Source: Styela clava (taxonomy: Eukaryota). From it: DNA of 64,000 nucleotides. Made by a program: the position numbers and the translations under genes. This document shows, piece by piece, positions 1 to 24,170 of this stretch. The notes below the pieces were generated by a model. The model did no database searches, was not told where the DNA came from, and worked only from the letters and a program-made list of their open reading frames with translations. The DNA is taken from positions 16,960,916-17,024,915 of the forward strand of contig NC_135258.1 in NCBI RefSeq assembly GCF_964204865.1. Direction: 5' to 3'. Every line of letters begins with the position of its first letter. The first letter of the stretch is position 1.

Positions 1-313
1 AAGTTTTCATATAATTAAAAGTTCTTCTCTGAAGTACATTTTGATTTCTAACACTCTAAAAATCCAATTTTTAAAAATCTCAAATTTTGGATGTCGATTG
101 GACTAATTCAATCACAATTAATAGTCTTTTATTAGTTATTGCTTTTTAACCTAACAATTCAACTTATACTTTTGACTTATTACAAAAAAAGAACCTCACT
201 TCACTAAATTTTTAGTTGATTTTAAATAATAGTCATGGCTAAAATGTTGCAAAAAGGTTCTAAGTTAGCAGCTACGTAAATGAAAAAAATAAATAAATAT
301 AAAACGAAAGATT

Positions 314-1576
314 TTACGAAACAAAAAATATATCTTGCAATATTTGGGAATCGTCATCACATGGCAATGCGCTCTGTAATGTACTAACATTAATGGATGT
401 TCTTAGATTTGATTCTTGCATGGATGGATGTGCAGGTAGTTTTGAACGCGACAACTCTTCTGTAACATAAAGAGAATCAGTTTCTAAGTCTTGAGTTAGC
501 AAATGTAAAATTTGTTCCGGTGAGTTTCTAGTTTGCCGCAAAGTGCTGTTGCTTGAATTAGAAGATGTCAAAGTTTTTGGAGGAGTTGAATTACTGATAC
601 TTTTGGATGGAGAGATATAAGATACGCTTTCTTTCATTGGAATTGGAGATAGAGTTTGTATGGGAATTGATTTTTTCTTTAACGAGGATGGAGGGCCGGT
701 TGATTTATCCACATAATTTCTAACAGGTGGAGATTGATCTAACTCTGGCTCTAAGCCTTCCTTCATGAGAAGTAACTTCCGCAAATTTTCTTGTTCTTTT
801 TTTAATAATCTCTTTTTCTTTTTTAAAAACAATTTGTATTGTTGATCGGTCATCTGCAACACATCATCTTCTGTTAAACTTGAATTAGAAGTATGTTCGT
901 CATACGCATCATTCACTCTGATCTCATCTGATGTTACTTCATCAGTGCCAGTTATAATGGATTCCGTCATCTGAGACGATGATTCTACAGGTTTTTCATA
1001 ATTTGTCGAAGAGGATTCTGACTGTGCTTTAGACTCCTCCCTGGCAAGAAGTGTGGTTTGCTGCATGGTGATTAAATTTTGATAATATTGAAGCAATGTT
1101 TGGCATTGTTTTACCTCTTCCGCTAAAAATTGTTGCTTACTCATAAGAGCTCTTTTTTCTTCCTCCATTTGTCTTACTTGCATGACAAATTTATGTCTCT
1201 CATCATTGAGGGCGAGAACAATATTTTCTTTTTCTTCTCCAACTTTTGCGAGTTCTTGTATTAAGTGAGCAATTCTTTGTTTATCCTGGGGATTGAGATC
1301 TTTGAGAGTAACGCCATCATCGCTTTTAATAACACTATCTCCACCTTCCACCAATTTTTCAGGTACCAGTATTGACTTCTGTACTTTAGTACTACTTTTA
1401 TTTTTCAAAGGTGTTTTCTCTTGTTTATTAACAGTGATATTTTTCGTATGATTCCGTATTTTAGATGTATCATTACTCTTTCTCCTTGACCTTCTATTTT
1501 CTCTATCACTTATACGCTTTGTTTTTGGTTCAGAGTCAGTTGCATCTTCCCAGAAAATGTCACTACAGGACAGCAT
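314..1576 (-). CDS. single-exon ORF, 420 aa, coiled-coil N-terminal half then Ser/Thr/Pro-rich C-terminal half; uncharacterised
   Basis: Uninterrupted 1,263-nt ORF with a true ATG (1574-1576) and stop at 314-316 in AT-rich DNA, where a chance ORF this long is improbable. Heptad-like charged region (…IAHLIQELAKVGEEKEN…QMEEEKRALMSKQQFLAEEVKQ…) and basic patch KKKKRLLKKEQENLRK. I do not recognise the family by eye. Confidence 0.5.
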   Translation of the reverse strand: MLSCSDIFWEDATDSEPKTKRISDRENRRSRRKSNDTSKIRNHTKNITVNKQEKTPLKNKSSTKVQKSILVPEKLVEGGDSVIKSDDGVTLKDLNPQDKQRIAHLIQELAKVGEEKENIVLALNDERHKFVMQVRQMEEEKRALMSKQQFLAEEVKQCQTLLQYYQNLITMQQTTLLAREESKAQSESSSTNYEKPVESSSQMTESIITGTDEVTSDEIRVNDAYDEHTSNSSLTEDDVLQMTDQQYKLFLKKKKRLLKKEQENLRKLLLMKEGLEPELDQSPPVRNYVDKSTGPPSSLKKKSIPIQTLSPIPMKESVSYISPSKSISNSTPPKTLTSSNSSNSTLRQTRNSPEQILHLLTQDLETDSLYVTEELSRSKLPAHPSMQESNLRTSINVSTLQSALPCDDDSQILQDIFFVS

Positions 1577-4500
1577 GTTACAAAATAAATAATTTAAAAT
1601 TAAACTGGCCTAATTAATAACCTGAAATTTTATACAAAAGAGGTAGTAAAAACAATATAAAGACATTAATGCAGTTAGACAGATGTAGTGTAGATAAAAG
1701 AAACTCAACAACATTGTTAATAGCGATTAATATCATTTAATAAAAGCTTAATAACGTATTATTACAGCATGATTTTAAAAATAAAAATTGAAAGAAAATA
1801 TTTGTACAATAATACATAAAAGCACACCTTGTGATACAGAGATACCTGTATTCAGCTTTTATTAAATGAATTGAAATTTAGTGAATAATTTACCAATTTA
1901 CATTTTACATGGTAAATAAATTCACAACTATCATATAATTTCATAAAAACATATTTTACCAACTTTGCAGTGACCAAACATAATTTTTTTCTAACATCGT
2001 AACAAAAAACTGTACAGAAAGATAAACTAAGGACATCAAGAATTACAGTAGTTGTGAATTCAAGATATTCAAAAAGAAAATTCAAAATACATTTCAGATT
2101 GGGTTATCCAACCAATTTCCAATTGCATTATTAAGGGGGATATTGTAGTTTATCATATTCTATAAAATGAGAGAGGGCATTTTAATATGTGCCATAAAAT
2201 TCTGCAAAAACCTCAAACAATTAGGCATGGGTTAAAGATAATACATGTTTTATCTAAAGCTGATGCTGCAGATAACGACATAAAAAATTGAAACCAAAAA
2301 ATAAAATTCTGTTCAGTGGTGCAAGTTATCATAGAAAGCAGATTAATTTATGGATACTGCACAACTGCAAATTATAAAATCACTAACTTCTTTGTACATA
2401 CGGTATACATTTCTCAATAACAGCAGTTCTCCGTAACTGTTATGGGCTCTTTATCAAATAAAAACGAAGTGTACATTCCAGTGGATACATAAAAGCAAAA
2501 TGCAAATTTACTACAATAAAAGTACCGAAATAAAATATATGACCAAACCCTTTATCTTTACATATTACCAATATTAAAACAAATATTATATGAACCAACA
2601 GACAAAATAGAAAACAAATGCAAAGTGTTACCAATGATGCACAAAAGAGATCACAACAAACAATCATTAATTTACAGAAATCAGTAGATATGAATGACAT
2701 GAACCAGTGGCAAAAATTTTGCAACAAATCAGGAACACAAAAAATCTTAGAACTTAAATTATCAAAATCTATTTTTTTTTCAAACTTTAACGCAGGTATG
2801 AATACAATTTTAAAGTCTCTACATGGTAAAAATGAGCCTTTCTTAACCAGACAAAAGTGGAAAAAAGACAAAATTGAACGTACAAAAGTGCAAAAATATT
2901 TCAGGTTTTAAAGGAAATCTATATCCTATCTATATCTATACGATTAACATACATTTGCAATAAAACTTTTCTCCTTTAATACATGACATATTTTAATATT
3001 TTATCACATGTTTTTTCTTGGCAAATTGAGCAATACCGATTAAATATTGTAGTTCAATACTTATTATCAAAATTCACAATGACCTATTTATTTCAACAAA
3101 TTGGCAAAATCTATTGAAAATTTTATCCGAATCCAACATTCAAGGCACAAAAAATAGCAAAGCAATAATACCTAAAGGAATATAAAACTTGATTATCAAA
3201 AATACCATTTCAACAATCAATAGCATTGCTATGAAACTTCTAAATAACATTGTAAAAACACCTGTGGCAAAAATTTACATTATTCCACATTTATGAATAT
3301 GAAACATAAATCAACCACAATATACTAATATCCCTTCTGAAAATTTGCTTAGTAATGAGTTAATTCTTATCAAGTATATATCATACATAAATCGCACTAA
3401 GATGATACAATATATAAGCAGCCCATGCAAGACTGCTTCAATTTATTGAAATTCAATGTTTAATAAATGATTTGAATTACCATATGTTTCTTATCCGTGA
3501 TACAAAGCATTTTTTAAGGAAATTGATTATGCACAAAAACATGGCAATTCGTGGCGTGAGTTTTACATAAGTTAACCTAAATAAAATATTGTTGTATTGA
3601 TAGCCTTCATGAATATTTTCTTGATTATTGATACATTTTTGAGAAATATATTCCGAAGCAAAATGATAACATGGACGAAGCATGCTTGTTAACTTGTATA
3701 TTCAAAATGAAATCGAGTCTTATTTCAATTATTCTGTTTGGAAATCGTTGAAATATATAGCCAAACAATAAAAGAGATGTATCATAGGTTTCATTAGGTA
3801 CCCTTTACTGAATATTTTAGCTCGATTTTGTTCAGTCTAGCACTGCCAAGCATATTAATGTATTAATGTTGCAACAGAGAATTGACTTTCTTAACTCTTG
3901 GCAAAAATACCATACATAATATGAAAAGATAGAGAAATAAGCCACCGTGTTCAGAATGATCAATATATAGCAATCGAAAGTGCATGAGAAAATGATAAAC
4001 AACTGAGCAAGCATATATGAAACAAGGCAGTTAAAGCATTTTATTTAATAAAATTGAAGGTAACATGGAGAGGTACTTACATAAAAGCATAATAAATTAT
4101 CAAGTCCAGCACCTAGTGCGATTTCAAATATAAAAATTATAAAATGAAACAATGGGAGTTCAAATATATAAAACGGTTCATTAATGTTTCTACATATTTA
4201 ACGCAGTTCACAGAACAAATTTGAACCTGGGTGATTGAGAAGTTGAAAAAAATATATGAAACATGAACTACATACAGAGCACCAGTGAATTTAGTTGAAG
4301 CAAAATTCAAAGATAAAAACAGACTAAATATTTTTCTGATGCAGTGGCGTAAATCTAATTTTACTAAATTGGATATTAGAACAGCCAGGAATATACATGA
4401 AAAAATTGGCAATATCGTTACAATGAGCCAACATGCAGTATTTGAACTAATCTGCATCAAATCCCAAAATTGAGTAAACTTTTTAAATATTTCCAATTTT

Positions 4501-5264
4501 AGAAAACAGCAACTATAGCCAGCATAAAAATCCTAACTTTTTGACTATTCATATTTAAAATCCGAAAACAATAGAAAATTTTTTTTTTGGAAAATGCAAC
4601 AAAATATTGTATTTGTATTTTAGAGAAACTAAGCTAAACATTGATACAAAACTAACAGAACATCGCAAAAATGAAAACCTCTCAAATTATCTCATTAATT
4701 ATACGAAGCAAAAGTCTAGTGTAATCTATCATGGAAAGCCAGTTTGATTTCAAAATTAAAACATCGAAAGAAAAATACTGTTATGTCAATGCAATGTGTC
4801 AAAAAAAAAAGTTTGAAAACATGATGTATGAATTAATATGAAAACCAAAATAAAAAAACTTAAATGTAGCTATACAATATTGGCAAAATAAACTGCTATA
4901 ATTAATACGCTGTAGACATGTAATTTGTACCAACTACCAATACCAATCCCACAAAAACTTTCCTCATAGCAGCTAATTACTCAGATACAAAAATTTTACC
5001 CTAAGGATGTCTGCATCTGAATATTCGGGTACAATGGAATTCCAACTTCCAAGATCGAAATGAATATATTTTGTGAAATATCAAACCAAATTTAATTGAG
5101 ACAAACCATGATTTTAACACGAAACAGTAAATTTTACTTAAAAAATACAGTAATTGTATTCTTATTTCAAATCATAATCATCTCGTTTAAAATGTAATAA
5201 AAATGTAGTATAATAAATCAGGTACGAGGGATAAAATAAAAAAAAAGCATGAAATAATTATGCA

Positions 5265-8200
5265 TTATACACTCGTTTCATTTCTGAGAGGAAGTGAATG
5301 TGACCCGACAGTGTTCGTACTTCCTTTCAATTGAAAACTACTTTCTGAAATAATATTGTCATCGTCGACTATTGTATCATCATGGGATGATAATATTAAA
5401 TCCAAATCTTTTTCCGATTCCTCTGAATTTATTACATTATTAGATTTGTTAATATTTAGTTTGTCTAAATTTTGAGTCTCCGTAACAATAGGTCTGTCTG
5501 AATCTGTCTTATCATAAAGTAAAAAAGGATTTGCATTTTGTAACTGCTGTAATGTTAAATACCCATGATTTTCTGATTTTGCTGGAACATTAGTCCTACT
5601 ACCAACAACTGGTGATAACCTTTCAATGTTATTAGCTGTTGTTAAATTCGATGAAGAATCATCTATCTTTGTAGAGACATTTTCTGCTTGATGTAGGTTT
5701 CTTTCGACGCGGCTTCTACTTTTTTCACTCGACGTTGTGTCCCTTTCTCTTTCCGATAGAGTAGAATTGTGACTGCGTCTCATGTTTTGTTTCGCTCGCT
5801 TTGTGGCTTGACCATTTTTATCTGCTGCTAAACCTTTAAGATGACGATGTTGACCATTTGATTCTCCTCGTTTCACTCTTCTGTTAGGTTTGCTGTGAGA
5901 TTTTTGTGTGTCATGTTTTTTATTAGATGGTGAATGTATTAAAAGAGTTCTGTATTTTGATGCGCTACTGTTATCAATACCATTCATATTATTCCCAGTA
6001 CTTTCCACTCCATTACAATTCACAGATTTTTCTGGAGATTGTATTAGTGGACTCGCCTCATTGATATTGCCTTCTTTCTGACTTATATCCTCATTACTGG
6101 TGAGGGGATCTTGAGCATATTCTCGAAGAACGTTGAGTTTTTTCTGTCTGGCTCTTTTGTGTTCGAGTGCTTTTCTCATTCTCTGATATCTATTGTAGAA
6201 CAAAGCATTGTCAATTTTCGGCTGTGTGTGATGTTGCATAACAACAGGAATCGTGTGCATGTTGTTATGTGCTATTTCATCAAAACTATGTTCCGTCATG
6301 CTAGAATCATGTGTCATGTGTAAATTAGTCATTTTTACAGGTTTATTATGTTGTTGGTGTGTGTGACCAAGATGTCCCGTGTGGTGGTTATGGTACCCAT
6401 GATGGTAATGGTGTGAATCTGCCATGTAACTTCTCGAATTCATTGCCATACAATGATCGTGAGAATACGGGTGGTGCAAATGTCCATGACTGGGTGAATG
6501 ACCTCTGAAACTAGCATTTAGAGCATGATCAGAGTGTTTGATAACACAGCCACTATGCATAGAAGTAATGGATTTGGCAGCACGCTCAATCTGGTGGTCC
6601 ACGCAAGGTAAATGGCCACTTTCATACATATTTTGCATATTATGGGGTGAAATACCACTATTATCTCTTGATAATTGTCTGAAATTAACACTTCCACTGT
6701 GAGCTATTTGTTCATCTTCTACTGTTGTAGAGTTGAAAATAGTCTCCATTGTAGTTGGATCTGTTTTATCAGTGTACATTTGATGTTCCCTTTGGTTTTT
6801 CTTATTTCCACATGGCGTAGATGTTTTATCATGAACCGAAGAACGGAAATCATCTGCATGTTCACCTGCTGCATCAAAATGATCACTTTCTGTATTCAAT
6901 GGTGCTGAAGTAGCTTGCGATTGTAAATCGGCATTTCTTTTGTATCCTTTTCTAGCTCGCTTGCAAGATGAACAAATGTAATTCCATGATGACCTGACAT
7001 CTCTTCGACAAATTAAATGCTGTATAAGTAAAAATACACCCATTATTATCGCCATTACTGCATAAGCATATGAAAATACTTCACCAGAAGTTGAAGTTGA
7101 TCCTTGTTGCCAGATTGCAAAATCCATGAATTCAGTTTCATATTGATCTTCATGTGAAAATTTATCCTGCATACCCGGAGCAGCAACTGACAATGCAGCA
7201 GCAACCCAAGTCATAATAAAGAAAACAAACAGCAAAGCAACACCAGTAAGCTGAGTTTTAAAACTTTGTTCATTCGAACGAGAAACTTGAAAACTGGGCG
7301 ATGTCACCGAACCACCGATTACTGCATTGTTGACTTGTGTGGAATAATGAAGCGAACTATCTTCATCTAAATTCCTACTGCATATCGCTTGATACCGATC
7401 TCCACCATTTGCCACTCTTGTATTTCCTTGCCATGATGAACGTGCAAGTGGGGAACTGGGACTGTCATCTTGTCTGGAGTGTTGATTGAGGGCACACAAT
7501 ACTCTTATCAACAAAATAACACAAACCACTGCTATCAAAAAAGCAGGCAAGTAAAAGGCAAAAATACTGGTTTCCCATGACAACCAACAATACTCCCTGT
7601 GCTTCCCAATATCACCGCTATAATTTTGAACTTTGGCAGCAGCTGTGATTCCACAAATCACTGTTGGAATCCCACATCCAATAAGATAAAACCTTAGCAT
7701 TGGTCTGGGTGGTTTTGGTTCAGCAGAAGGTGGTCTACTATGAATAACCAATTCTTTGTGAATATTTTTTGCACTAATTGTAATCCATAACAAAATTGAC
7801 AATGATGCATAGTGTAGAACGATTCCACATGCCAAGCACATAGCTTTGTAATCTACCCGCCAAATCCCGAGAGCAAAAGCACAAGAGACAAGTAACATAT
7901 GTCCACATATGTTAACAAGCATATGTCTAGAGTCTGACGATATTTTCAGTTTACTTGAACAGCAAATGTAACTCATTATAATTACAATGAGGCATGCATT
8001 GAGAATTCCTGTGCCTGCAAATACTGCTGGATGTGCCAGATTTGCCAATGACCATGGGTTGGAAGAATCAGCGACAGAAGATGGATCATATAATATCGTT
8101 ACAACAGACAATTTCTTGCATCTAACATAGGTGTAGTTCCTGTTGAAACGTTGTGGCGAAGCTATACAACTCTCGTCTTTTACCCAACCACGATCTCGAG

Positions 8201-10211
8201 ACCAAACTGCGGGACCATGAGATCCTGTGTGAGTAGTTTTAAATTTGAAACTAATTGGGTCAGAGAGATTAGAAACATTGCAACCACTAACTCCAGTTTC
8301 CAGAACAATATTCTGTGTTATTGAGTTTGAATTTCCAAAGGTTGTGTTCGATAAGCTGTCTATACTATCCAGAAATTTTTGTTGAAATAGGCTCCCATTT
8401 CTATAGGCAATGAAGTAAAGCTTATATTGGCCAGTTGGACTTTCTCCACATGAATTAAGAAGGGATTTTGGCAAAGACACAGAAGATTGCATTTCTTGGC
8501 GTTTAAATTGAGATGTCTTACATTCAAATTTGAAGTTTTTAATACCGCTTGAAACCTTACATGTCAATCCATTACCTTCTTTATTATATTGTGACTTACT
8601 CTCCATCATAAATCCACTCACTGCGATATTTTCAGAAGCATCGCTGAACTCTGCAGAAGATGTTCCTTTCAGTGCATAGCTTCTTACAACTTTCAAAATT
8701 TTATCGCACGCTCCAGAAGCTTTTTGTGCCTCTCTTAAAAGAGATGCATTGGCATTCATAGCATAGCTTGCTAATCCCAATATTTCATCGCCCAAATCAT
8801 GCCTGTTGCCATGAACCATAACATCCATCAATCTTTCCATTAGCTGACTGATTAACTGGACAGTGAGAGATTCTGTGATGGGTGTGGGAACTTGAAGCAA
8901 GCCAAGATTCCTTATCAACTCCTGAACTAAAGATTCTGCATTACGTGATGTAATATCTTTTAAAGAATTGTGTATCAATCTAGTTGCCTTGCTTTTGTAA
9001 GGGCAGTGGTCATAATGCTCCAATGACCAATTCCCACTGGAACAGCTTCGATATGCCTTGTTAATATGCATTTCACCAGGCATACTTCGTGATAATGGGC
9101 ATTTGATGGACTTTGTTATGCCAGATACCGTTGAGTTCCACGTAAAGTCACCTCTGTTATTTTCAACTTCCCTTCTAGGGCAGTAACTAGAATTATGACT
9201 TATGACTATAATTCTGATAACTCTATTTTCACTTCCATGTTCTGATGAAACCATACAACTCCAATTTCCACTGTGATTCTTAGAGAGATTTTTTATCTGT
9301 AAGAATCCCATAATAATTGGTTCATACTTGCTGATGGCTGCATTTTTTACAATCAGGTTTTCGTCACTCAGATTAATAGATATTCTGTTGAAACTCCAAG
9401 TTATTTCAGACGTTGGCAAATTTGTACCTTCACATTGCATAAAGAATTCATCACCTTCAAAAACTAATTGATGGGAATCCGGTGTTATTTCAAAATAGGG
9501 CAAACTTGATAATGTATTATTTGCATCACATACAAAATCATCCGTAGTCAAGCTACGAAGCGAACGTCCCCTCAAACTTAGGGGTAAGTGACAAGTTCCA
9601 TATACTCTTACTGGAGGGTCTTTCGTATCGATCCAGATTTTGAAATCATGCATAAGGCAGTTGCAAACAAAATCAGTAGATTTCACATACAATTTTCTTA
9701 ATTTTGGAAGATTCGAAAATGAATCTCCAGGAATTATGGGAAATATGTTTAAGGAAAGGTCCAGAACTTCCAGACTTGGTAAACCCTCAAACATATCGGC
9801 GGATAAATGTCCAATGCTGTTTGAACTCAAATTCAGTCGTGTCAAATTTGTAAAAATTGAAAACGATTTTGGAGATATTCTTGAAATTTTATTGTTTGAC
9901 ATATCCAACTTTATAACTTGTTTTAATATTTCAAGTGTGTGAAGTTTTTCTCCAAAAATATCTTTATTTATTTCTTTCAAATCATTATCAGTAAGATCTA
10001 TGGAAAGTAAGACAATGTCGTCTGGAAATTCCGCATTAGCAAACATGTCAGCAATATTGATTCTGTGACAGTCCATTTTCTTGCCTTGTATCTTGGACTG
10101 TCGTGACTTGTTCCTGCAGCCGCATGACGTGTGGTAATTGAGAACACATCCATTTGACAGAGATGCAAGTAATAGGATCACAGGCAGTAATATCTCGGGG
10201 AACTCCATCAT
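5265..10211 (-). CDS. adhesion GPCR, ADGRA (GPR124/GPR125)-like, intronless, 1,648 aa
   Basis: Single ORF. The track start 10223 is TTG; the first ATGs are at 10209-10211 and 10206-10208 (MMEF…). Signal peptide EFPEILLPVILLLASLSNG. LRR repeats (LxxLxLxxNxI…) plus LRRCT (CNC…FVCD). Ig-like domain (QCEGT…ITW…GNWSCMV). Hormone-receptor motif CPRREVENNRGDFTW…C…GNWS…C. GPS-like CIASPQRFNRNYTYVRCKKLSVVTILYD. Seven hydrophobic helices (about 6990-8045 on +) with a long ICL3. 500-aa tail ending ETSV. Confidence 0.85.
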   Translation of the reverse strand: MMEFPEILLPVILLLASLSNGCVLNYHTSCGCRNKSRQSKIQGKKMDCHRINIADMFANAEFPDDIVLLSIDLTDNDLKEINKDIFGEKLHTLEILKQVIKLDMSNNKISRISPKSFSIFTNLTRLNLSSNSIGHLSADMFEGLPSLEVLDLSLNIFPIIPGDSFSNLPKLRKLYVKSTDFVCNCLMHDFKIWIDTKDPPVRVYGTCHLPLSLRGRSLRSLTTDDFVCDANNTLSSLPYFEITPDSHQLVFEGDEFFMQCEGTNLPTSEITWSFNRISINLSDENLIVKNAAISKYEPIIMGFLQIKNLSKNHSGNWSCMVSSEHGSENRVIRIIVISHNSSYCPRREVENNRGDFTWNSTVSGITKSIKCPLSRSMPGEMHINKAYRSCSSGNWSLEHYDHCPYKSKATRLIHNSLKDITSRNAESLVQELIRNLGLLQVPTPITESLTVQLISQLMERLMDVMVHGNRHDLGDEILGLASYAMNANASLLREAQKASGACDKILKVVRSYALKGTSSAEFSDASENIAVSGFMMESKSQYNKEGNGLTCKVSSGIKNFKFECKTSQFKRQEMQSSVSLPKSLLNSCGESPTGQYKLYFIAYRNGSLFQQKFLDSIDSLSNTTFGNSNSITQNIVLETGVSGCNVSNLSDPISFKFKTTHTGSHGPAVWSRDRGWVKDESCIASPQRFNRNYTYVRCKKLSVVTILYDPSSVADSSNPWSLANLAHPAVFAGTGILNACLIVIIMSYICCSSKLKISSDSRHMLVNICGHMLLVSCAFALGIWRVDYKAMCLACGIVLHYASLSILLWITISAKNIHKELVIHSRPPSAEPKPPRPMLRFYLIGCGIPTVICGITAAAKVQNYSGDIGKHREYCWLSWETSIFAFYLPAFLIAVVCVILLIRVLCALNQHSRQDDSPSSPLARSSWQGNTRVANGGDRYQAICSRNLDEDSSLHYSTQVNNAVIGGSVTSPSFQVSRSNEQSFKTQLTGVALLFVFFIMTWVAAALSVAAPGMQDKFSHEDQYETEFMDFAIWQQGSTSTSGEVFSYAYAVMAIIMGVFLLIQHLICRRDVRSSWNYICSSCKRARKGYKRNADLQSQATSAPLNTESDHFDAAGEHADDFRSSVHDKTSTPCGNKKNQREHQMYTDKTDPTTMETIFNSTTVEDEQIAHSGSVNFRQLSRDNSGISPHNMQNMYESGHLPCVDHQIERAAKSITSMHSGCVIKHSDHALNASFRGHSPSHGHLHHPYSHDHCMAMNSRSYMADSHHYHHGYHNHHTGHLGHTHQQHNKPVKMTNLHMTHDSSMTEHSFDEIAHNNMHTIPVVMQHHTQPKIDNALFYNRYQRMRKALEHKRARQKKLNVLREYAQDPLTSNEDISQKEGNINEASPLIQSPEKSVNCNGVESTGNNMNGIDNSSASKYRTLLIHSPSNKKHDTQKSHSKPNRRVKRGESNGQHRHLKGLAADKNGQATKRAKQNMRRSHNSTLSERERDTTSSEKSRSRVERNLHQAENVSTKIDDSSSNLTTANNIERLSPVVGSRTNVPAKSENHGYLTLQQLQNANPFLLYDKTDSDRPIVTETQNLDKLNINKSNNVINSEESEKDLDLILSSHDDTIVDDDNIISESSFQLKGSTNTVGSHSLPLRNETSV

Positions 10212-10310
10212 ACTAATGATCAAGAAGTCATGAGCAGTTTAATGGCTGCCACAAATGTGTTATAGTTATCACGTTATCATTTCAACCATAATTATATTTA
10301 AACATTAATT

Positions 10311-10665
10311 CTAGGATAAGATAGGATTTACATATTTATCCCGGGGGAGAGGAAAGGCGATAAGACGGCTTAATCATATGGCGAACCACGGCCTCTCACC
10401 CGGTTACCAGTCCAGGTCGGGTATGGGATTAGATAGCCAGTTATTTGTTCTGGAAAGCATGGACTTGACTTGGACTTAATGGTGGAGGAAGCCGTAACCG
10501 ACCAGTGGTTACGTGAACCACCCTGCGGCGGCGAGGAGTCCAGCAATGCTCTCGCACATGATCATCCCTGCATGGGATTCGAACCGGCGAACCCACGAAG
10601 GGTAATTAGAGATGCGGTGAGGAGCGTATTTCTAACGCTTAGCACGATAGCCACACCGCCGAGCC
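10311..10665 (-). mobile_element. tRNA-derived SINE, family A, full-length copy
   Basis: Read on the minus strand: GGCTCGGCGGTGTGGCTATCGTGCTAAGCG…GGTTCGAATCCCATGCAGGG (pol III A box, perfect B box), then a body with GGGTGGTTCACGTAACC…GGTTACGGCTTCCTCCACC, ending in the tail GGATAAATATGTAAATCCTATCTTATCC. Related copies at 11899-12097, 20741-21005, 25129-25432, 31760-31865 and 36690-36800. Confidence 0.7.
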
Positions 10666-11717: not shown

Positions 11718-12293
11718 CCGTGTTTCCCCGGAAATAGGACCTACCCTTAAAATAGGACCTAGCATAAATTTTAAAAATTATTTTAATATAACGCGAATTT
11801 ATTTTTGACCTAGTCGATAGCAAGAAATCTCCCCTACACGTTTTGAATGATTAATAACCTGTGTTTTGCAGTTATTTTGAATAAAAACGAATATAATTGG
11901 GTGGTTCACGTAACCGCTGGTCGGTTACGGCTTCCTCCACCACCAAGTTCATGCTTCCGAAAACAAACAATATATAAATAATCCCATACCCGACTTGGAA
12001 TGGTAACCGGACGAGAGGCCGTGGTTCGCCATATGGATAAGCCGTCTTATCGGCTTTCCTCTCCCCCGGGATAAATATGTAAATCCTATCCTATCCTAAA
12101 AACGTGTTATTTATAAGTAAATAGATATGTCAATTTTCATATTTTGTATATTTGAAAATCTCCCAATTTTCTACGTTGTAATTTTGTTTTTGATAAATGG
12201 AAATATAAAACATCCCCCAAAAATAAGCCCTAGTTTTATTTTTCGAAAGAAAATTGAAATAAGACCCAGTCCTATTTTCGGAGAAACACGGTA
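11718..12293. repeat. TIR-bounded short element (CCGTGTTTCCCCGGAAATAGGACC … GGTCCTATTTTCGGAGAAACACGG) with SINE-A copy nested inside
   Basis: Inverted termini at 11718-11745 and about 12265-12293. Internal sequence matches 41455-41545, 42000-42235 and 50985-51060 (…AAAATAAGCCCTAGT…TTTTCGAAAGAAAATTGAA…). Confidence 0.45.
11899..12097 (+). mobile_element. SINE family A, 5'-truncated copy (body+tail), inverted relative to the 10311-10665 copy
   Basis: GGGTGGTTCACGTAACCGCTGGTCGGTTACGGCTTCCTCCACC…GGATAAATATGTAAATCCTATCCTATCC. The reverse complement is about 90% identical to 10311-10530. Confidence 0.65.
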
Positions 12294-14443: not shown

Positions 14444-14944
14444 CACTTTTTAAATTTACTATTACAAAAAAAAACGGGTTGGTAAATAAAAATCCCAAAA
14501 ATCCATATTTCGAAATTTCAAACTTAGTCCCGAAATCCCGTCGATTTTGTAAGCTTAGTACGATCAATGAGCATATATATACATGCTCATTGGTACAATG
14601 TTCTAACGTTTGAACAAGGGGATCCAAAGACAAGAAATGGATCAAATTGTGTAGATACGGACAGCATTTCCACATTTTGGTTCATTATTCAATAATACTC
14701 ATAATTTCCAATACCGCAAAGGCAATCACAAAGTACGTTGGTATCACGAGTTTTTTGGAAGTTGTGTATGGAGTGCGTTTTTATAGGCATTTTAGGTGCA
14801 ACTTTTTGATGTAAGTTCTAATGTGGTAGTTGTCGGTATTTACAGGGCGTGCATCGTGTGGGGTTGCAACTAGGGGGTCATGAGGTTTTTCATGTGTCAT
14901 GTGTGATATACATTTACCAGGTTAACGTCATTATAGCATTAACA

Positions 14945-15073
14945 ATGAGAAAGGAAATATTTTTTAAACTTCTGCAAAGGCATACTTACACATGCCTCTC
15001 TCATCAATATGGAATCTATTTTGCATTTGCTGGAATTGTTCTTGTTTTGTATTCTATGTTTCAATTCGGCGAG
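14945..15073 (+). CDS. GNPTAB: GNPTAB exon 1 (start codon, N-terminal cytoplasmic tail and TM1)
   Basis: ATG at 14945 (the track ORF starts earlier on GTG). [43 protein letters not shown] matches the GNPTAB N-terminus (human [21 protein letters not shown]…FQFGE). Donor GAG|GTAAGT. Confidence 0.8.
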
Positions 15074-15720
15074 GTAAGTCGACAACATATGAATAGAATA
15101 AAAGCATAGGCTATAGCCTAAGTGTTTACACATTCTCTAATCTATATAGTAAAGCTTGTAGTTCTGTAGTTAGTTCACCTACTACTGTACTACGGTTCTC
15201 TGGTTCTAACTTATACAGTTAGATATATGTGAATACTGGAATATGAACAGAATATGGTCAACCTTCTATCTGTCTATCTTTTCACAGAAGTCTGGAAGTG
15301 GCAGTACTGCTTTATCTTGCTTTTTTATTTTGCATTCCAGATTGAAATCAAAATTTACCTACTTGAGTTGCCTAAATCACAATACAGCAATACAGCAATA
15401 GCCTAGCTCAATCTGACAATTGTGGGCACCAATATATATTTATAAACAAACAAATTAACTTGTGTTTTAATAGTAAAAGTACTACTATTTTCAGAATCTT
15501 CTTTGGTCAATCGGACAATAATTCTTTATACTTTGTGTGGTGGTTTTCATGCCTTAAATGTTATTTCTTGATTTGGCACTTGACTTAGAGATTAGTTTCA
15601 AAGATTTTCCTGAGTTTTAGTAACCTGGTATATCGGTATATATAAGCTATTATACACTATTGCATATTGACATATATTTATGCATTACTATCATTTCTTA
15701 CCATTTATTTTCTTTGGCAG

Positions 15721-16145
15721 GAGATGCTGGAATGGAGCCAAACTCAATATGATTCAGTTTTCAGTCTTTATCATGACAACATAGCAGGAAGATCATATCA
15801 AGCTATGTTGGCTGCCCCAATACCAATAGACGTTGTATACACATGGGTCAATGGATCTGACCCAATTCTACTCAGTCAGCTGAGTGCTTTAAAAGCAAGT
15901 TTAAACTCTGGGACTATGACCCTCAATACTACCTCACTTCCCGATCCAAAATTTTCTCAATGTTTACATAAAGATTGTTTTTTATTGCCTTGTCTGATTA
16001 CAAACCCTATGCTGGGGGAACAACTAACTGTTACTGAGGCGAAGGAAAAATGGGTAGGTCTGTCAGATCTCAAATGGATTGGAAATGTAGAAGTAACAAA
16101 AGGATTTATCTCAGAAACAAAAGCAACAAATGTTACAATTCTCAG
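15721..16145 (+). CDS. GNPTAB: GNPTAB exon 2 (Stealth CR1)
   Basis: Acceptor tttctttggcag|. EMLEWSQTQYD…NIAGRSYQ…PIDVVYTWVNGSDP matches the Stealth CR1 signature. Donor TCAG|GTATTT, phase 2. Confidence 0.85.
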
Positions 16146-16935
16146 GTATTTAATTTGTTGTCTTTACATTACATAAACAACTAGGCTGTAAATTTAAGCT
16201 GTTCTTGATTTGATACTTGAAATATTTACCAAGATATGAAGTGCCAATGGTAGAATTATATTGGTATATTAAGAAAGAATCTGATGAATTTACCTTATTA
16301 TAAAGGGTGAAATATATTTTATTCAAAATTTCGAACCATATACCCACTCCTTCAACCCATGTAAGGTAGAATAATAATTGAGTTGTTGGTAAACTGGGAA
16401 GTATCATTCCTGGCTCCCAATAAATTGATGACTGCTTGTGTGGAGCCTTGCTTAGAGTGGATTTTTTAAATCATTCATGTGAAAATACTTATTATTTTTG
16501 CCAACGGGATTGAATGAGTAAAAATTAAGAAATTTAAACTCTTCTACTAAAAATTTGAGGAAAATTGTTTAAAATATTCAAATTCATGATTTGCGAAGTA
16601 TTTTCAAGTGTCAAGATATTTGAACTATGGTTATAAAATCTTATTTAAATGACACTTTCATGATTTTCCCTTCGAATAAGGCTCTATACAAGCATCCACT
16701 GAAACTGCTTTTATATAAAAGAACCAGGATCTTACTAACAAATATACTAAACATTGAGTGAAGTCTGGAGGTAGGGGCATGGTATTTGAACTGGAGTTAT
16801 GTAATCTGTAATGCAAACACCGTTATAACAGTTAATATTTTCATGCTGCTAAATATCAGTACTCATTTTAACGAATTCCAGATAATATCGTTATCAGTAT
16901 AATTATATATTATTAAACCAAATTTTTTTTCTAAG

Positions 16936-17195
16936 GTTCGAAGACAAAGAGAAAGTAAAATCAGCATTGACCTCATTAACAGAATTACAAAATAGAACTT
17001 TCCAACCTTCATATATAACAACAGCATCTGATGCTTCAAGTTCTTCTCAACTTCGTAATGCTTTAGTATTAAAAGGGATTCCTGATAAAATGAACTCTGA
17101 TGAATTGAAGGAAAAATTTCCAGAATATTTAAAGCAAATATCAGAATGGATATATATAGCAGGAGCAGAACATCTTGCATTAGTTTGGACAAATG
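16936..17195 (+). CDS. GNPTAB: GNPTAB exon 3
   Basis: Acceptor ttttttttctaag|. Open frame …ALVLKGIPDKMNSDELKEKFPEYLKQISEW…VWTN. Donor ATG|GTGATT was chosen because it is the only GT giving phase continuity (phase 1) into exon 4, so this 3' boundary is less certain. Confidence 0.6.
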
Positions 17196-17613
17196 GTGAT
17201 TTTACATTGCTTTTATACATACCTGTAGATACCTATGTTGGCATGGCAGTTTAAAAATCTCGAGTTCAAGTCCCATAGGATGCAATAAACTGGGTAATCT
17301 TTGCTGAACTGCAAAAATTGAGGTCTTTCAAAAATAATGTGGGTTGTTACATAGTAGTGGAAGCCTATATAGAGCCTTGTTTTGAGCAAAAAGCATATAA
17401 AAGAGTCATGAAAACAGTTCCATCTGAGGTTAGACAGTCAAACAAAGCCATCTAAGAAGACCTTTTTATATATTATAAGAACAAAATTTATCATTCAAAT
17501 ATTTATTATCTATCTATTACCGTAATTATCAATTTTGAATGCCTCGCATTAAACTCAATAATCGATATTTTTTTTTAAACAGTTTGTAATATACAACATA
17601 TTCATATTTCTAG

Positions 17614-17788
17614 ATGCAAAGAAGACTGCTACCATTCTGGATCCTAAAAGTAACACAACACTTCCATTTTTTGGGATTGGTGAATCTACCGTAAAAATTT
17701 CAGCAGCTTATATGCTAGTGCATGTTGAGGAAGCACCAACACAAGATGATATGGCTCGTAGTCGCTTCGAAGACAATGAAGAATTGAG
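17614..17788 (+). CDS. GNPTAB: GNPTAB exon 4
   Basis: Acceptor catatttctag|. …DDMARSRFEDNEELR matches the conserved SRFEDNEELRYSLRS region. Donor TTGAG|GTTGGT. Confidence 0.8.
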
Positions 17789-18353
17789 GTTGGTTTTTTC
17801 TGTTGAATATAAAATGGCGTATGAGAGTAGTAGCTAGTTTTACTTTCAAGGCCGAGGTGTTTTGGTTATTTTCTGCTGATTTTTGCTGAAGTTTGCTATT
17901 AATTTTGTTCATTTTTGTTTTTGTTTTGGACTTTCTTGTTTCTTATTAAGTGGTTCAAAATTATCATTTTGTTCAAAAATCATCCTAGGATTATTTCTTT
18001 TGTCATAGGATACGTTCTCTTAACATTGCAGCATTTGAACATTTATTGATAAATATATTGTCCTTGTGCATAAAACTACCCCAGTTATTAGTACCACTAA
18101 TTATTAATAACCATTTATCATTTTTCTAGACAGGTACAGCAGGTAATTTAAACTTTTCAATGTTCTGTCATTTTCAAAAGAGCTGCGGATCCACAATGTG
18201 TGTTTGTACATCTCTATTTCTATTACTCAAACTACTCAAACATTGGTAGCTTTTTATGTCTGAATGCCTCATATGCAAAAACATACGAAAATCTGAATTT
18301 AAAAAGTTAAAATATTAACAATTTCAAAAGAATAATGTCTTAATTACTTTCAG

Positions 18354-18465
18354 GTATTCATTGAGATCTGTTGAAAAATTTGCTCCATGGATTCGAAAAG
18401 TTTTTATTGTCACAAATGGACAAATTCCTTATTGGTTGAACATGGATAATCCAAGGATAATAATA
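18354..18465 (+). CDS. GNPTAB: GNPTAB exon 5 (Stealth CR2)
   Basis: (R)[37 protein letters not shown] matches human [38 protein letters not shown]. Donor ATA|GTGAGT. Confidence 0.85.
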
Positions 18466-19032
18466 GTGAGTTTGTTATAGGCTATTAATTGTCATTGTTA
18501 AGATTTTTATTGTAGGATTACAAAATTACATGAATCATCATTTGTGAGTAAAGAATAAAACATTGTAGAAGCAGTAATTCGAATTTTTTGAAATACTTCC
18601 ATTTAACACTCCCATCAGAATAAATTAAACAGACATTTCTAGTTCAAATGCATGTTTCTGACCATGTAACAGCAAACAGGAAACAAGTGTTGTTTAATAA
18701 TCATTCAATTTTTTGAATTTGTTCCATTCATTCTTATCCATAAATAAGGATACTTATACTGAGAAAGGTTGCAGACAACTACTCAAATTCGGCTTGGCGG
18801 TATGATGCATCATGCTAAGTGCTAACCATTCTTTAATACGATTTAGTCTTAGTAGCTCTTGACACTTTAGTGGTTGCCCACAACTTCACTCACAGATCAA
18901 TCTGTCATATTTTTGAGTGAGTGCATGTAGCCTTGCTTTGAGCACATTTACTTGTAAAAAAAAGTATAACAGTTAACAGACTAACAGTTATAAATCTCAT
19001 AGTCTATAATAACCTGAATTTATGGTAAACAG

Positions 19033-19173
19033 GTAACCCACGAGGATATATTTGTCAACAAAACTCATCTTCCAACGTTTAGTTCCCCCGCAATTGAATC
19101 TCATATTCATCGTATTCCTGGACTTGCAAAAAAATTTATATATATGAATGACGATGTTATGTTTGGAAGACAG
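19033..19173 (+). CDS. GNPTAB: GNPTAB exon 6 (Stealth CR2 cont.)
   Basis: [47 protein letters not shown], with human …THQDVF…[35 protein letters not shown]. Sites aaacag| and CAG|GTAAGT. Confidence 0.9.
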
Positions 19174-19695
19174 GTAAGTTTATTTTTGGTAGAGGATTGG
19201 AAAACAAAGCAGATATTTTAGGGCAGGGATAGCAAACTGCTAGCACGGATGTCACCTTCTTTCGATATAACAAGTGCTACATGTGTAAATCTCAAACATA
19301 CACATCCATGCCAACCGATGATTACAAGATTTACAGAAAAGATGCAACAGCAAGTATCTCCTTGAAGCAAACATTGATTAAATCTATGACCCACATTATT
19401 CTCTTATGAGAAAATATAATAAATGACCCATTTCTTAAAAAAGGTTTGTCATTACTTTGTATTTCAATTCCTTTATAAGCATCTCATTTTCAGTTTTTTA
19501 ATCTCCATTAAATATGTTGTTAGTTAAAACTAGGTCTGTGGAGTTAAAGTCGCAGTTGGACTACAAAAGCATTAACTTGACTAAACATTCTCAACTGGCA
19601 ATTGAGGAAGACTTGCATACTCCAAAGTTTTGTTATCAAAATATTATTGTCGTCAAAATTTCCTTCAACCGAGGGACCGAGAGAAAAATTTTCGG

Positions 19696-19927
19696 GGCTC
19701 CCGAAGTATGCGAACCAAGATGGCAGACATCGGAATGTAATATGTGTACTAGGTTAGGGTTAGGCCATAATTTTAGGTATAAATACTACGGGAGGCTTTT
19801 GGCTAGTCTTCGAACTGATAATAGGACTAAAATAAGGAAAATTGGAAAAAAATTACCGCCTAACCCTAACCTTTTACCCATGTTACGTTCCGATGTCCGC
19901 CATCTTGGTTCGCATACTTCGGGAGCA
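19696..19927. repeat. long hairpin / palindromic MITE in GNPTAB intron 6, arms about 70 bp, loop about 90 bp, each arm ending in TTAGGG-like units
   Basis: Left arm GGGCTCCCGAAGTATGCGAACCAAGATGGCAGACATCGGAATGTAATATGTGTACTAGGTTAGGGTTAGGC. Right arm GCCTAACCCTAACC…CGATGTCCGCCATCTTGGTTCGCATACTTCGGGAGCAC, about 90% complementary. Track ORF 19514-19942 is an artefact of this element. Confidence 0.6.
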
Positions 19928-20232
19928 CCAAATTTTCATTAGCCCAGCGTCTCATTTTGGAATTGTTAGACTTGAGTCGGAACCTGGTGTAAATATTCTC
20001 CGATTCCACAGCCTTGATTTAAAGAAATAATTCTTCAGATATTATGTATACATTGTATTCATTATTCAATTCGGGTGAAAAGGAAATGCGCCAGCGAATT
20101 ACAAATTTAGTAATTTATCTGTACCTTCATCCTCATCTTAACAATATATTTATTATCAAAAATTAGTCTTTGATTTTGTGTCAGAAAATCAATGCAAAAA
20201 ATGAAATCATGTTTCTGTTATATTTGATTCAG

Positions 20233-20398
20233 GTATGGCCAGATGATTTTTATACTCACTCCTTTGGACAAAAAGTGTATCTAACATGGCCAGTTCCAAA
20301 CTGTGCAGATGGTTGTGCTCCGACCTGGATAAAGGATGGTTTCTGTGACTCCGCTTGCAATGTTTCAGATTGCAGCTATGATGGTGGAGATTGCATCG
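20233..20398 (+). CDS. GNPTAB: GNPTAB exon 7 (LNR/Notch repeat 1)
   Basis: [54 protein letters not shown] matches human [54 protein letters not shown]. Donor ATCG|GTAAGG, phase 1. Confidence 0.9.
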
Positions 20399-20538
20399 GT
20401 AAGGATCAACTATTATGTGTGAAATGGTTCACTTATTCTCCCCGACGTTTAACCCTTAGAAAATTTGCATGTGCATCTTACCAGTACCTAAGCTAATACC
20501 ATAAATATGATTTTTTTTTCTAATTTTAATTTTCACAG

Positions 20539-20654
20539 GTAACAATGTTAGAGCTGGTGTTGGGATGTCTCATGGAGGATATAGTTTCAGTACATCATCT
20601 TACTGTTATCCAGGATGTGCAGATACATGGCTTGCAGATAAATTTTGTGATCAG
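20539..20654 (+). CDS. GNPTAB: GNPTAB exon 8 (LNR repeat 2, first part)
   Basis: Acceptor ttttcacag|. …SYCYPGCADTWLADKFCDQ matches human SYCNQGCANSWLADKFCDQ. Donor CAG|GTAAAT. Confidence 0.85.
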
Positions 20655-20740
20655 GTAAATCCTCTTTTAAAGGCATAGAGTAAAAAAGTGAACATTCTTT
20701 CCTATGACAGGCTTTAATCTGGGATGCCAACATACAGTGC

Positions 20741-21005
20741 CAGGCAAGGTGATTGGGACATCATGCTAAGTGTTAGGGATACTCTTGCCATCACACCTCT
20801 TTATCCTTCGGGATTAAATATTTGTGAGAGGATGCCTGGACCTGCCGCGGGGTGGTTCATGTAACCGATGGACGGTTACGGCTTCCTCCACCATCAAGTC
20901 AATCCATTTAAAAAAATACCTGGCTAACTACAGTATTTACATATATTATTAAGTTATTTTATCAGCTTCCTTCTCCCTCTGGATAAATATGTAAATCCCT
21001 TCCCC
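20741..21005 (+). mobile_element. SINE family A copy in GNPTAB intron 8
   Basis: tRNA-like head (…CATCATGCTAAGTGTTAGGGATACTCTTGCCATCACACC…), body GGGTGGTTCATGTAACCGATGGACGGTTACGGCTTCCTCCACCATCAAGTC, tail GGATAAATATGTAAATCCC. Confidence 0.65.
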
Positions 21006-21098
21006 AAAACATTCGTCATTGGTATTTATTCCCCCAAAAACTTTTATTCTTATTTTCAATTTGGCTATTACGATACCCATAGTTTTATTTTATTACAG

Positions 21099-21248
21099 TC
21101 GTGCAACAAACTGGAATGTGGATTTGATGCAGCAGATTGTGGGAAAAGTAATTTTAACAAAATCTATAAAATCAAGTTTCGAATGGAGAATGGCACGATA
21201 TACAAAGTACCGCACGGTGCTAAAAGTGCATACATCGACTTTTCAAAG
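21099..21248 (+). CDS. GNPTAB: GNPTAB exon 9 (LNR repeat 2 cont.)
   Basis: Acceptor ttttattacag|. SCNKLECGFDAADCGKSNF… matches human ACNVLSCGFDAGDCGQDHF. The track ORF at 21019-21252 is the wrong frame. Donor AAG|GTAGGA. Confidence 0.85.
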
Positions 21249-21595
21249 GTAGGAAACCTATTAGACTTTGAAAGTTTAAAGTGGAAGCTGGAAAGTAGTT
21301 TCTAGGGATTTTTTCTGTCATTTCATTGAAATTCAAAAGAGCAGGATTATTTACATGTTTAAGAATTCTGATAATGCTAAAAATTTTAATTATTAACAAG
21401 ATTTATTTATGACCATGAAATCTTAATTTAGGTTGAATTTTATCATTGAAAATATTCAAGAAAGTATTAAAAGCTGTTTTGATTATCAATGCTAAACCTT
21501 TTATTTTATTATCAATTATGTTAAAAAAAATTCTATGTTTGTGTCTGTTTTAATTTTATAACTTCTGGAATATAATCCTCTTCTATAATTTTCAG

Positions 21596-22545
21596 CACTT
21601 TAGAAAAATTACAAAAGCGGAATACGATAAAGACAAGTCAATTCGTACTGCTGCTGTGTCGAACAAATTTAACGTCACTACTTTAATATATAAATCAGAC
21701 GGAAATGAATCCAATATCAGATTCATTTTGACTGGTGAATCATTGCATCCAAAAAATTCTAAAGGAGATGAGACTTCAAATAGAACTATGATATGTGTGT
21801 TCTTTAACGTCACTGCATATCCTTCGAAAAACGTAACTTTTAATTTATCGAGTATACATGAAGAAGATCCCGATGACGTTTCAGAAAAAGTTGACGACAT
21901 TGTTGTTAACAAAACTAACTCGGTAATAAACGATGATTTTTCCGATATAATCACTTTTCCGGAAGATAAAAAAAAGCCTCGTGTATTTCATCACGAAAAA
22001 ATGATCCCAAAATCAGTAGATTTACCGGAATTTATTGACACTAGCGTCTTGCCTGAAAATGTTGCAAATCAGTATCAAAAACTGGAAGAAGCTTTTCAAA
22101 GCAATTACATCACTGAAAAAGGATACAGAAAACAAAAATCTGTCTTGTTGTCACCATTTCTTGATGTTTTAAAACAAGCAGCACTCGATATGAACGAGAA
22201 AATATCACAAGATTCTATTCTTAAAGAAATGAATGCAGCAAAATTAGGTTTACAAAGAAGCAAAAATATGGGAGTTGCTTTAGATTTTGAAGAAAGTAAA
22301 GAAAAGAATAAAGTTACTGATAGTCAACAGAATAAGCTTCTTCCGAAAGAGAATACAAATTCTGAAATTCCAGATAGTCATGCTAACGAGAAAAAAGAAT
22401 TGGATTCGAAAGATAGTGATAAATTAGTAGATAATAGAGAAAACCAAACGAATGATTTTTCTGAAGCTGGTCATCAACATAATAAAGGCGACACTGGTCA
22501 AGAAGAAAAACTTGATCCTGTAGAGGCACATCATGAATCTTTAAG
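21596..22545 (+). CDS. GNPTAB: GNPTAB exon 10 (950-nt spacer-region exon)
   Basis: Acceptor ttttcag|CACTTT. The frame stays open for 950 nt through a low-complexity acidic/Ser/Lys-rich region, N-glycosylation sequons and …VLLSPFLDVLKQAALDM…. Donor TTAAG|GTTAGT, phase 2. Confidence 0.75.
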
Positions 22546-22874
22546 GTTAGTAGCTGTGTTAAAGCTGATGTTAATAAACAATGCAAGAAGTCCCACTAAA
22601 TGAATGTTAAATGAATAAAATTCCGCATTGTGAGCTTTATTAAATTGTTGAGTACATGGCCTGTGGCCAGCTAGATGTCTAAAGTTGGTTATATGGGCCG
22701 ACAAAAGATGTTGCACACCCCTGTTTTTATGTGCAGTGCCTTCATGAACATTACATAAATAACATTCACTGTGTGTTGGTTTTACAAGGTACAGCTTGTT
22801 TGTACATAGCACTGAATCATTGATATCAACATTTTGTTCATTTGTAACTTGTCAAATGTCAATTTATTTTACAG

Positions 22875-22993
22875 GAAGCCACCGAATCATGAAGCTCTCA
22901 ATGAATCCATGTTGAAGAATCCGTTTTATAGAATCATCAAGAATTCTCCGGACTTGAAGAAGTCTAGGAACAATTCCACTTTCAATGAATCAG
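22875..22993 (+). CDS. GNPTAB: GNPTAB exon 11
   Basis: Acceptor ttttacag|. (R)KPPNHEALNESMLKNPFYRIIKNSPDLKKSRNNSTFNES. Donor TCAG|GTATGG, phase 1. Confidence 0.7.
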
Positions 22994-23433
22994 GTATGGG
23001 CTAAGGATGTAAATGTGACACTTCGTTTGAATCTGGTCTTATTTAGTTTTCTAAAATTTTGCCTTGCATTATCTTGTTTTGCCTGAAGAAGTTAGATTAG
23101 AATCTAACAAAAGCTCACAAATATACTTGCTATTTTGTGAAAAGAGATCATTTCATTCTTACTTAATATTTTGAAACTATCTTGTTTGAGTATCCTGGTG
23201 GCAATGACCGTAATTCAGATATGAAGTAGGAAGTAGACCAGGAGAAAAGACCTGCAGTTTAAATGCCATATCCTACTATTTAAAAGTTTAAAGTCAAATG
23301 TGTATAATCCAAAGTCTAAAGTTTTTTTAAAAATGGTTAAGCTCTTATATCATGGTTTTTAGTATCATGGCGATAAATCCATCTCTAATCTCAGTTTATC
23401 TTTTCCCCATTTTTTCATTCACACCTATTCTAG

Positions 23434-24020: not shown

Positions 24021-24170
24021 ATTCAAAATTGACGATTCTTTAAGAATTGGTAGAAGAAAACCCTTAGATGCATTTGCGGATTCCTTAAGATACGTCAGTA
24101 ATATTTACAACAGAGATTTTGGTTTTACTCAGCGTAAAGTACCAGCACATATGCCTCACTTTGTTGACAG
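24021..24170 (+). CDS. GNPTAB: GNPTAB exon 13 (alpha/beta cleavage region and Stealth CR3)
   Basis: Acceptor ctatctgcag|. …[41 protein letters not shown] matches human [40 protein letters not shown]. Donor GACAG|GTAAGG. Confidence 0.85.

Follow-up and report, generated by a model that had tools for sequence, protein, structure and literature searches.

A single-exon family-A adhesion receptor gene in the tunicate Styela clava: likely loss of all coding introns by way of a spliced mRNA

In vertebrates, ADGRA2 (GPR124) and ADGRA3 (GPR125) act in adhesion and as co-receptor scaffolds. They belong to family A of the adhesion-type G protein-coupled receptors (GPCRs), and their chains follow a single order of leucine-rich repeats (LRR), immunoglobulin-like (Ig) domain, HRM, GAIN, class-B2 seven-transmembrane (7TM) domain and long cytoplasmic tail, with a non-canonical GPS, a set of tail motifs and a terminal E-T-[ST]-V ligand for PDZ domains. 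At least one family-A adhesion GPCR is reported in each of Ciona, lancelet and lamprey, without an expansion of the family in Ciona (PMC8584163). Here we describe the ADGRA gene of the tunicate Styela clava, contained in 64,000 nucleotides of contig NC_135258.1 (assembly GCF_964204865.1, positions 16,960,916 to 17,024,915 of the forward strand), a stretch which we call the window. The whole protein is encoded there by one exon, and the gene structure is best compared with the reverse-transcriptase model of intron loss (PMC3652778) and with orphan retrogenes, with which it has in common the precise removal of introns, the disappearance of all of those in the coding part and a gene that is kept functional.

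The minus strand of the window is open from 10223 to 5265, in one reading frame (ORF) with its first ATG at 10211 and a TAA stop at 5265-5267, exactly the limits given in a first-pass annotation of this DNA made from the letters alone. The coding sequence (CDS) is 1,648 codons long, with NETSV as its last residues. The second-longest ORF of the window, in six frames, is of 420 amino acids (aa); given that stops make up 0.0605 of the codons in the window, a frame would stay open over 1,648 codons by chance with a probability of about 10^-45. The translation showed 100% identity, over 1,648 aa, to the RefSeq protein named by NCBI 'adhesion G protein-coupled receptor A3-like [Styela clava]'; the receptor gene is, that is, already annotated in S. 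clava and, because the two sequences are identical, the annotated CDS is also without introns. The gene is intact and conserved and is no pseudogene, as had been argued before, with an intact ORF, conserved motifs and a non-synonymous divergence (dN) well under the saturated synonymous divergence (dS).

Relatives were found by an exhaustive HMMER search using aa 331-1100 of the receptor. The closest was a 1,510-aa protein from a Logan assembly (L001, 41% identity, E 9e-162), followed by Phallusia mammillata 'GPR125' (CAB3250649.1) and Ciona intestinalis ADGRA3 (H2XJY3), then by vertebrate ADGRA3, ADGRA2 and ADGRA1 and by the ADGRA-like proteins of lamprey, Owenia and Lineus. The top matches carrying a name were all ADGRA1, ADGRA2 or ADGRA3, the others being unnamed or hypothetical, and none belonged to another adhesion GPCR family (20 representatives looked up by cluster). 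The last of these look-ups yielded vertebrates and molluscs but no additional tunicate. With both tunicate and vertebrate ADGRA proteins the alignment was colinear over the full length, from the LRRs to the last residue. The tunicate sequences, which clustered together with 100% bootstrap, are 34-48% identical to the S. clava protein overall and at most 69% in the 7TM domain (Phallusia, Ciona, L001 and the tunicate contigs L002 and L004 described below), whereas identity to ADGRA2 and ADGRA3, the best matches outside the tunicates, is about 29%. Membership in family A, as first proposed, is therefore secure, and the S. clava gene is an orthologue of vertebrate ADGRA1/2/3 (GPR123/124/125), the tunicate gene being co-orthologous to all three.

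The domain order expected for ADGRA2/3 was recovered along the chain, HRM only tentatively (Table 1). Pfam matched LRR_8 (E 2.5e-19), LRR_4 (2.7e-7, aa 98-180), Ig_3 (4.6e-8, aa 238-322) and 7tm_2 (6.3e-16), and the PDB matches included LRR structures for the N-terminal part and ADGRG2 structures for the 7TM part. HRM, the weakest member of the architecture described in the first-pass annotation, gave E 0.01 and 16.6 bits against a Pfam cut-off of 26.2; in the alignment of tunicate and vertebrate ADGRA, the columns C344, W358, C371, C390, W395 and C403 of this region are invariant. The local Pfam scan of the receptor ORF gave no match for GPS or GAIN; PF26588 (GAIN_ADGRA3) is a precomputed match on the identical database protein, and W670, W676, C682 and C698 of this region are invariant in the ADGRA alignment. 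A hydropathy scan revealed a signal peptide and exactly seven transmembrane (TM) segments, at aa 729-747, 765-783, 790-808, 841-859, 890-908, 991-1009 and 1045-1063, and the signal peptide, the seven helices and the C-terminal ETSV noted before are all present. The motifs KMTNLH, TEHS, MHTIPV and VLREYA of the tail are common to S. clava and vertebrate ADGRA2/3. The protein ends with ETSV in S. clava, as it does in L002 and Phallusia, with ETTV in the ADGRA3 of fish and the ADGRA2 of marsupials, and with ETTL in L001. Compared with the vertebrate proteins, that of S. clava is longer in intracellular loop 3, in extracellular loop 3 and in the tail, which is rich in His, Ser and Asn.

The cichlid ADGRA3 protein, mapped exactly onto its 32-kb gene, is encoded by 19 coding exons separated by 18 introns, in agreement with the earlier statement that ADGRA2 and ADGRA3 normally have about 19 exons, whereas the CDS of S. 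clava has 1. Among the tunicates, two Logan contigs, L002 and L003 (runs SRR10746997 and SRR10746996), were reached via a 113-aa Logan fragment. In L002 the region matching S. clava aa 709-1648, the 3' 60% of the gene, is divided into at least 14 exons; all its introns are of the GT-AG type, 65-332 nt long, and the spliced exons give a clean 994-aa ORF ending in NETSV. When the intron maps were projected on the alignment, four of the L002 introns coincided with cichlid ADGRA3 introns in both position and phase, and three of these four were directly visible in a mammal-like ADGRA2 fragment (L005). Since they are shared in this way by L002, the cichlid gene and the ADGRA2 fragment, the four introns are older than the split between tunicates and vertebrates. 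Both S. clava (Table 1) and L001 are uninterrupted at all four positions; in S. clava the removal was precise and the flanking codons are undisturbed. The intron-free state of the S. clava CDS is thus, as read from these intron maps, a derived one, a secondary loss and not the ancestral condition. A single-exon CDS of 4.9 kb is moreover atypical for this genome, because intron-less genes are reported to be fewer in S. clava than in Ciona (PMC7540406) and introner elements are reported in it (PMC12130899).

Nine other introns of L002, from TM5 to the C-terminus, have no vertebrate counterpart. At the position of the L002 intron at aa 1015 (phase 0), the Ciona protein model contains the in-frame insert VCYSNFF...FFKQ; a Val codon (GT) opens it and Gln closes it, which is what a retained GT...AG intron would give, and the aa 1015 intron is probably at least ascidian-wide. 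The same Ensembl-derived model, H2XJY3, has hydrophobic, low-complexity inserts, such as LLLFNFSILLFFHSFLFF, KFIIF and the one just mentioned, which coincide with intron sites of L002 or of vertebrates; it probably reads through or mis-splices small introns. An introner origin of the L002 introns was considered and rejected, as no sequence similarity links any of them to the others. In L004 (SRR32906200), a third fragment of tunicate origin, at least the intron at aa 708 is retained; that at aa 752 is absent, as are those that vertebrates have at 570 and 641, and therefore piecemeal intron loss also occurs in ADGRA. As a separate observation, an L002 intron at 614-821 corresponds to aa 789 of S. 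clava (phase 0), and cichlid ADGRA3 has one five codons further downstream, at aa 794 (also phase 0). L004, at about 790-800, seems to be interrupted at aa 794, where the donor is of the GC type (CAG/GCAAGA); the offset between aa 789 and aa 794 may be due to intron sliding or to a contig-end artefact.

The state of the S. clava gene is shared by its best match in the search, L001. L001 is a tunicate contig of 10,256 bp (SRR23343704) in which ADGRA is a single 1,510-aa ORF at 208-4740, with a KIAA1328 gene, also a single ORF (454 aa, 6273-7637, plus strand), on the same strand at its 3' side. With both genes complete and some 4 kb free of ORFs within its 10 kb, this contig looks like genomic DNA. 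In S. clava the KIAA1328-like ORF is found on the same strand as the receptor, 3.7 kb downstream of it, and its product is 36% identical to that of L001 from the first to the last residue, so that the two tunicates have in common the pair of an intron-free ADGRA and an intron-free KIAA1328-like gene. L002, on the other hand, has no KIAA1328 within 7 kb downstream of ADGRA; its 3' side contains a MARCH5-like RING-CH ORF (7811-8092, minus strand) and a weak DAAF9_N ORF (10135-10311, plus strand), and no counterpart of either was present in the 64-kb S. clava window. As far as the downstream flank is concerned, which is the only one compared, S. clava differs from the intron-bearing L002 and matches the intron-free L001.

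We consider it likely that the S. clava gene is a functional family-A orthologue whose coding introns were all lost through a spliced mRNA, in an old event shared with the species of L001; the reverse transcription and the single origin of the loss are what we infer from the pattern described above. One old event in the common ancestor of the two species is most simply suggested, because they share two rare characters, the absence of introns and the same KIAA1328 neighbour. Distance quartets with the nearest outgroup and a rate correction, given below, also favour this pair of species. Synonymous sites were saturated in both tunicate comparisons, with dN of 0.37-0.62; for this reason dN/dS is not computable, and these values point to a long divergence under constraint. 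Since the ADGRA-KIAA1328 pair occurs in two tunicates separated by saturated divergence, the event looks old.

Several observations weigh against this reading. Two hallmarks of retroposition were missing in the receptor flanks: no A-rich 20-mer was present within 1.5 kb after the stop, as a poly(A) remnant, and the longest direct repeat between the flanks, a candidate target-site duplication, was of 12 nt, a length reached or exceeded in 24% of shuffles. The absence of introns in L001 would be uninformative if that contig derived from RNA, its origin from DNA being not proven. A neighbour-joining tree on 267 gap-free columns of the 7TM domain united S. clava with L002, with 100% bootstrap (identity 69%, against 50% with L001), and the same pair was obtained in about 100% of quartets with a vertebrate outgroup; parsimony quartets with Phallusia were tied, 20 versus 21. 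ADGRA thus gives conflicting branching orders for the three tunicates, and a pairing of S. clava with L002 needs two independent complete losses. Finally, a word-indexed protein search with the GAIN-7TM part returned vertebrate ADGRA only and missed even the identical S. clava protein.

As to the route, an ancestral gene with many introns would have been transcribed, and its spliced mRNA copied back into DNA. The cDNA may then have recombined with the gene in place, removing all the coding introns, or a full-length retrocopy may have taken over while the multi-exon parent gene was lost. We regard the two routes, in-place conversion by cDNA and a retrocopy whose parent later disappeared, as about equally likely. 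The description 'retrogene-like' of the first-pass annotation fits in so far as the four ancestral introns are absent, as after passage through a spliced mRNA, but unlike a typical retrogene the S. clava gene has no poly(A), no target-site duplication and no known parent copy, and it is not a recent copy. The search for a poly(A) remnant or a target-site duplication, proposed together with that description, gave neither above background: the lone A10 run, 680 nt downstream of the stop, is itself background, the window having roughly one such run in every 3 kb. Hexamers of the polyadenylation-signal type (AATAAA or ATTAAA) were located at +169 and +1216.

In its most explicit form, the retroposition route would have an mRNA retrocopy of ADGRA inserted upstream of KIAA1328 in the ancestor of S. 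clava and L001, with the parent lost later, a proposal which we hold only tentatively. It is consistent with the lack of all coding introns at once, with the adjacency of both intron-free genes to KIAA1328 and with distance quartets in which Phallusia, the nearest outgroup, and a rate correction were used, and in which S. clava was joined to L001 in 75-98%. That the L002 gene, which bears introns, has other ORFs on its downstream side also leans towards retroposition with later parent loss. This leaning is weakened because a single flank was compared and gene order in tunicates is not stable but heavily rearranged. The missing poly(A) and target-site duplication count against a retrocopy, although at such an age both would be erased, and if S. 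clava were sister to L002, two retrocopies landing beside KIAA1328 would be implausible.

That sister relationship is the basis of a further reading, which we hold unlikely, in which the ADGRA-KIAA1328 adjacency was ancestral and S. clava and L001 were purged separately, each in place, by recombination with cDNA. In its favour are the 7TM tree and the quartets with vertebrates, together with the piecemeal loss recorded in L004 (where aa 708 is kept). The two losses would, however, have to be convergent as well as complete, and the 7TM domain of L001 is fast-evolving, which favours long-branch attraction to distant outgroups: the topology flips with the outgroup, reversing with the nearest one and rate correction, and this is the pattern expected from such attraction. 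In the tail, the identities of S. clava to the two other tunicates, L001 and L002, are nearly equal (0.43 versus 0.41), and its GAIN domain is equally close to those of L001 and L004.

It is rather improbable that the gene is a retro-duplicate, or paralogue, of a multi-exon ADGRA that S. clava would still have at another locus. On this point the protein searches had little power (the word-indexed search with an alignment of four tunicates had zero matches), and L002 is not formally proven to be a separate species. On the other side, no second S. clava ADGRA protein was returned by the protein searches, which are insensitive and did not cover the S. clava assembly itself, and family A is reported without expansion in Ciona (PMC8584163). 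L002 contains none of the interspersed repeats of the window, of which there are several families, and even the exon of L002 that is best conserved has no more than 70% DNA identity to S. clava; for these two reasons it most likely comes from another species. The 'lineage-specific intronless paralogue' offered as an alternative at first thus finds no evidence of an extra copy, and the only S. clava ADGRA protein returned behaves as an orthologue.

Operons and trans-splicing occur in tunicates. ADGRA and the KIAA1328-like gene are both intron-free, on the same strand and paired in two deeply diverged tunicates, and this would be compatible with their arrival together as a reverse-transcribed, spliced polycistronic transcript of operon type, which later replaced the multi-exon parents; we think this very improbable. 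Two separate purges would be the milder alternative and, if true, would mean that one and the same gene, of 5 kb, was stripped of every intron on two independent occasions. Hardly any weight is left for a gene that was always intron-poor, with introns gained later in L002 and in vertebrates, as the nine introns private to L002 and the introners reported in S. clava (PMC12130899) could suggest, or for a non-functional relic ORF, given that vertebrate and tunicate have four introns with the same position and phase, that those of L002 are not introners and lack mutual similarity, that the Ciona insert resembles a retained intron at the aa 1015 site, and that the ORF has 1,648 codons, conserved motifs and dN well below saturated dS.

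The features of the locus are collected in Table 1. On the upstream side, GNPTAB (14900-30000, plus strand) lies head to head with the receptor at a distance of about 4.7 kb, and its domains are found in separate ORFs, Stealth_CR1 at 15667-16176, DMAP_binding at 21656-22603 and Stealth_CR4 at 29514-29906. The statement that the receptor sits between intron-rich neighbours thus holds for GNPTAB, which is split, but not for the downstream side, where the KIAA1328-like gene is one uninterrupted ORF; this may be the gene previously called kinectin-like, in which case its CDS is not spliced. Within the GNPTAB span there are also a 252-bp palindrome (19685-19936) and a 63-bp tandem duplication (27139-27263). 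The 5' flank of the receptor, outside the gene, is marked by a short interspersed nuclear element (SINE)-like repeat, for which neither ARAGORN nor Rfam called a tRNA or an Rfam family. An inverted partial copy with 85% identity lies 1.3 kb further upstream (11899-12101), and older copies at 25128-25415 and 20820-20900 fall inside the GNPTAB span. Farther away, a 358-aa ORF with an RRM domain (37134-38210, minus strand) is contained in 36000-38300, where, over 2 kb, GC content (0.45) and C skew are the highest of the window. Ten further ORFs of the window, of at least 90 aa, gave no Pfam matches.

Table 1. Features of the S. clava ADGRA locus; positions are those of the 64-kb window.
Feature	Position	Strand	Basis or remark
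Complete uninterrupted CDS, S. clava ADGRA (GPR124/125-type) adhesion GPCR	5265..10211	-	100% identity to NCBI protein
Signal peptide, ~aa 1-25	10137..10211	-	Hydrophobic aa 6-24; N-terminus aligns with tunicate ADGRA
Leucine-rich repeats and C-terminal cap, aa 70-230	9522..10004	-	LRR_8, LRR_4, PDB LRR matches
Ig-like domain, aa 238-334	9210..9500	-	Ig_3, ig, I-set
HRM domain, aa 343-404, weak by Pfam	9000..9185	-	Sub-cut-off HRM; invariant Cys/Trp
GAIN domain, ~aa 420-708, non-canonical GPS at aa 698-702	8088..8954	-	PF26588; invariant W/C
7TM domain, aa 729-1063, intracellular loop 3 of ~80 aa	7023..8027	-	7tm_2 (TM1-5), hydropathy, conserved TM6/7 columns
Cytoplasmic tail, aa 1064-1648	5268..7022	-	Motifs common with vertebrate ADGRA2/3 in alignments
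PDZ-binding ETSV, terminal	5268-5279	-	Alignment
Sites of four lost ancestral introns	7590..8088	-	Cichlid ADGRA3 and L002 intron maps projected on alignment
Lost intron 1, aa 708, phase 0	junction 8088/8087	-	CDS continuous
Lost intron 2, aa 752, phase 2	junction 7954/7953	-	CDS continuous
Lost intron 3, aa 839, phase 2	junction 7693/7692	-	CDS continuous
Lost intron 4, aa 873, phase 2	junction 7591/7590	-	CDS continuous
KIAA1328/hinderin-like coiled-coil gene, one uninterrupted 420-aa ORF	314..1576	-	Pfam KIAA1328, 1.8e-11
SINE-like interspersed repeat, ~340 bp, tRNA-like B-box (GGTTCGAATCC)	10309..10648		100-440 bp upstream of start codon

By analogy with ADGRA2 and ADGRA3 (for ADGRA3, see PMC12059339), we infer that the receptor is a working cell-surface adhesion GPCR, a co-receptor scaffold that would recruit PDZ and polarity proteins. 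The LRR-Ig-HRM ectodomain would bind partners, the class-B2 seven-helix domain would signal, and the ETSV tail may dock PDZ proteins such as Dlg. The GPS site of S. clava reads C-K-K-L/S, without His at -2, and the aligned triads of ADGRA2 (HLG) and ADGRA3 (SLG) are likewise non-canonical; because the cleavage triad is KL/S instead of HL/T, self-cleavage of the GAIN domain is unlikely, to judge from these residues.

The S. clava gene adds one more case to a known phenomenon, intron loss mediated by mRNA or retrogene replacement, and involves no new element or mechanism. It offers a clean example with a defined ancestral state, in which a 4.9-kb developmental receptor, formerly of about 19 or more exons, has lost all its coding introns and is probably still functional, in a genome where, according to published reports, intron-less genes are otherwise few and introns are actively gained (PMC7540406, PMC12130899). 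With its three comparison contigs assigned to species, it would become a small test case for retrogene replacement versus in-place conversion by cDNA. Moreover, the single-exon CDS makes the sole tunicate ADGRA easier to clone, which would be useful for studying the ancestral role of GPR124/125.

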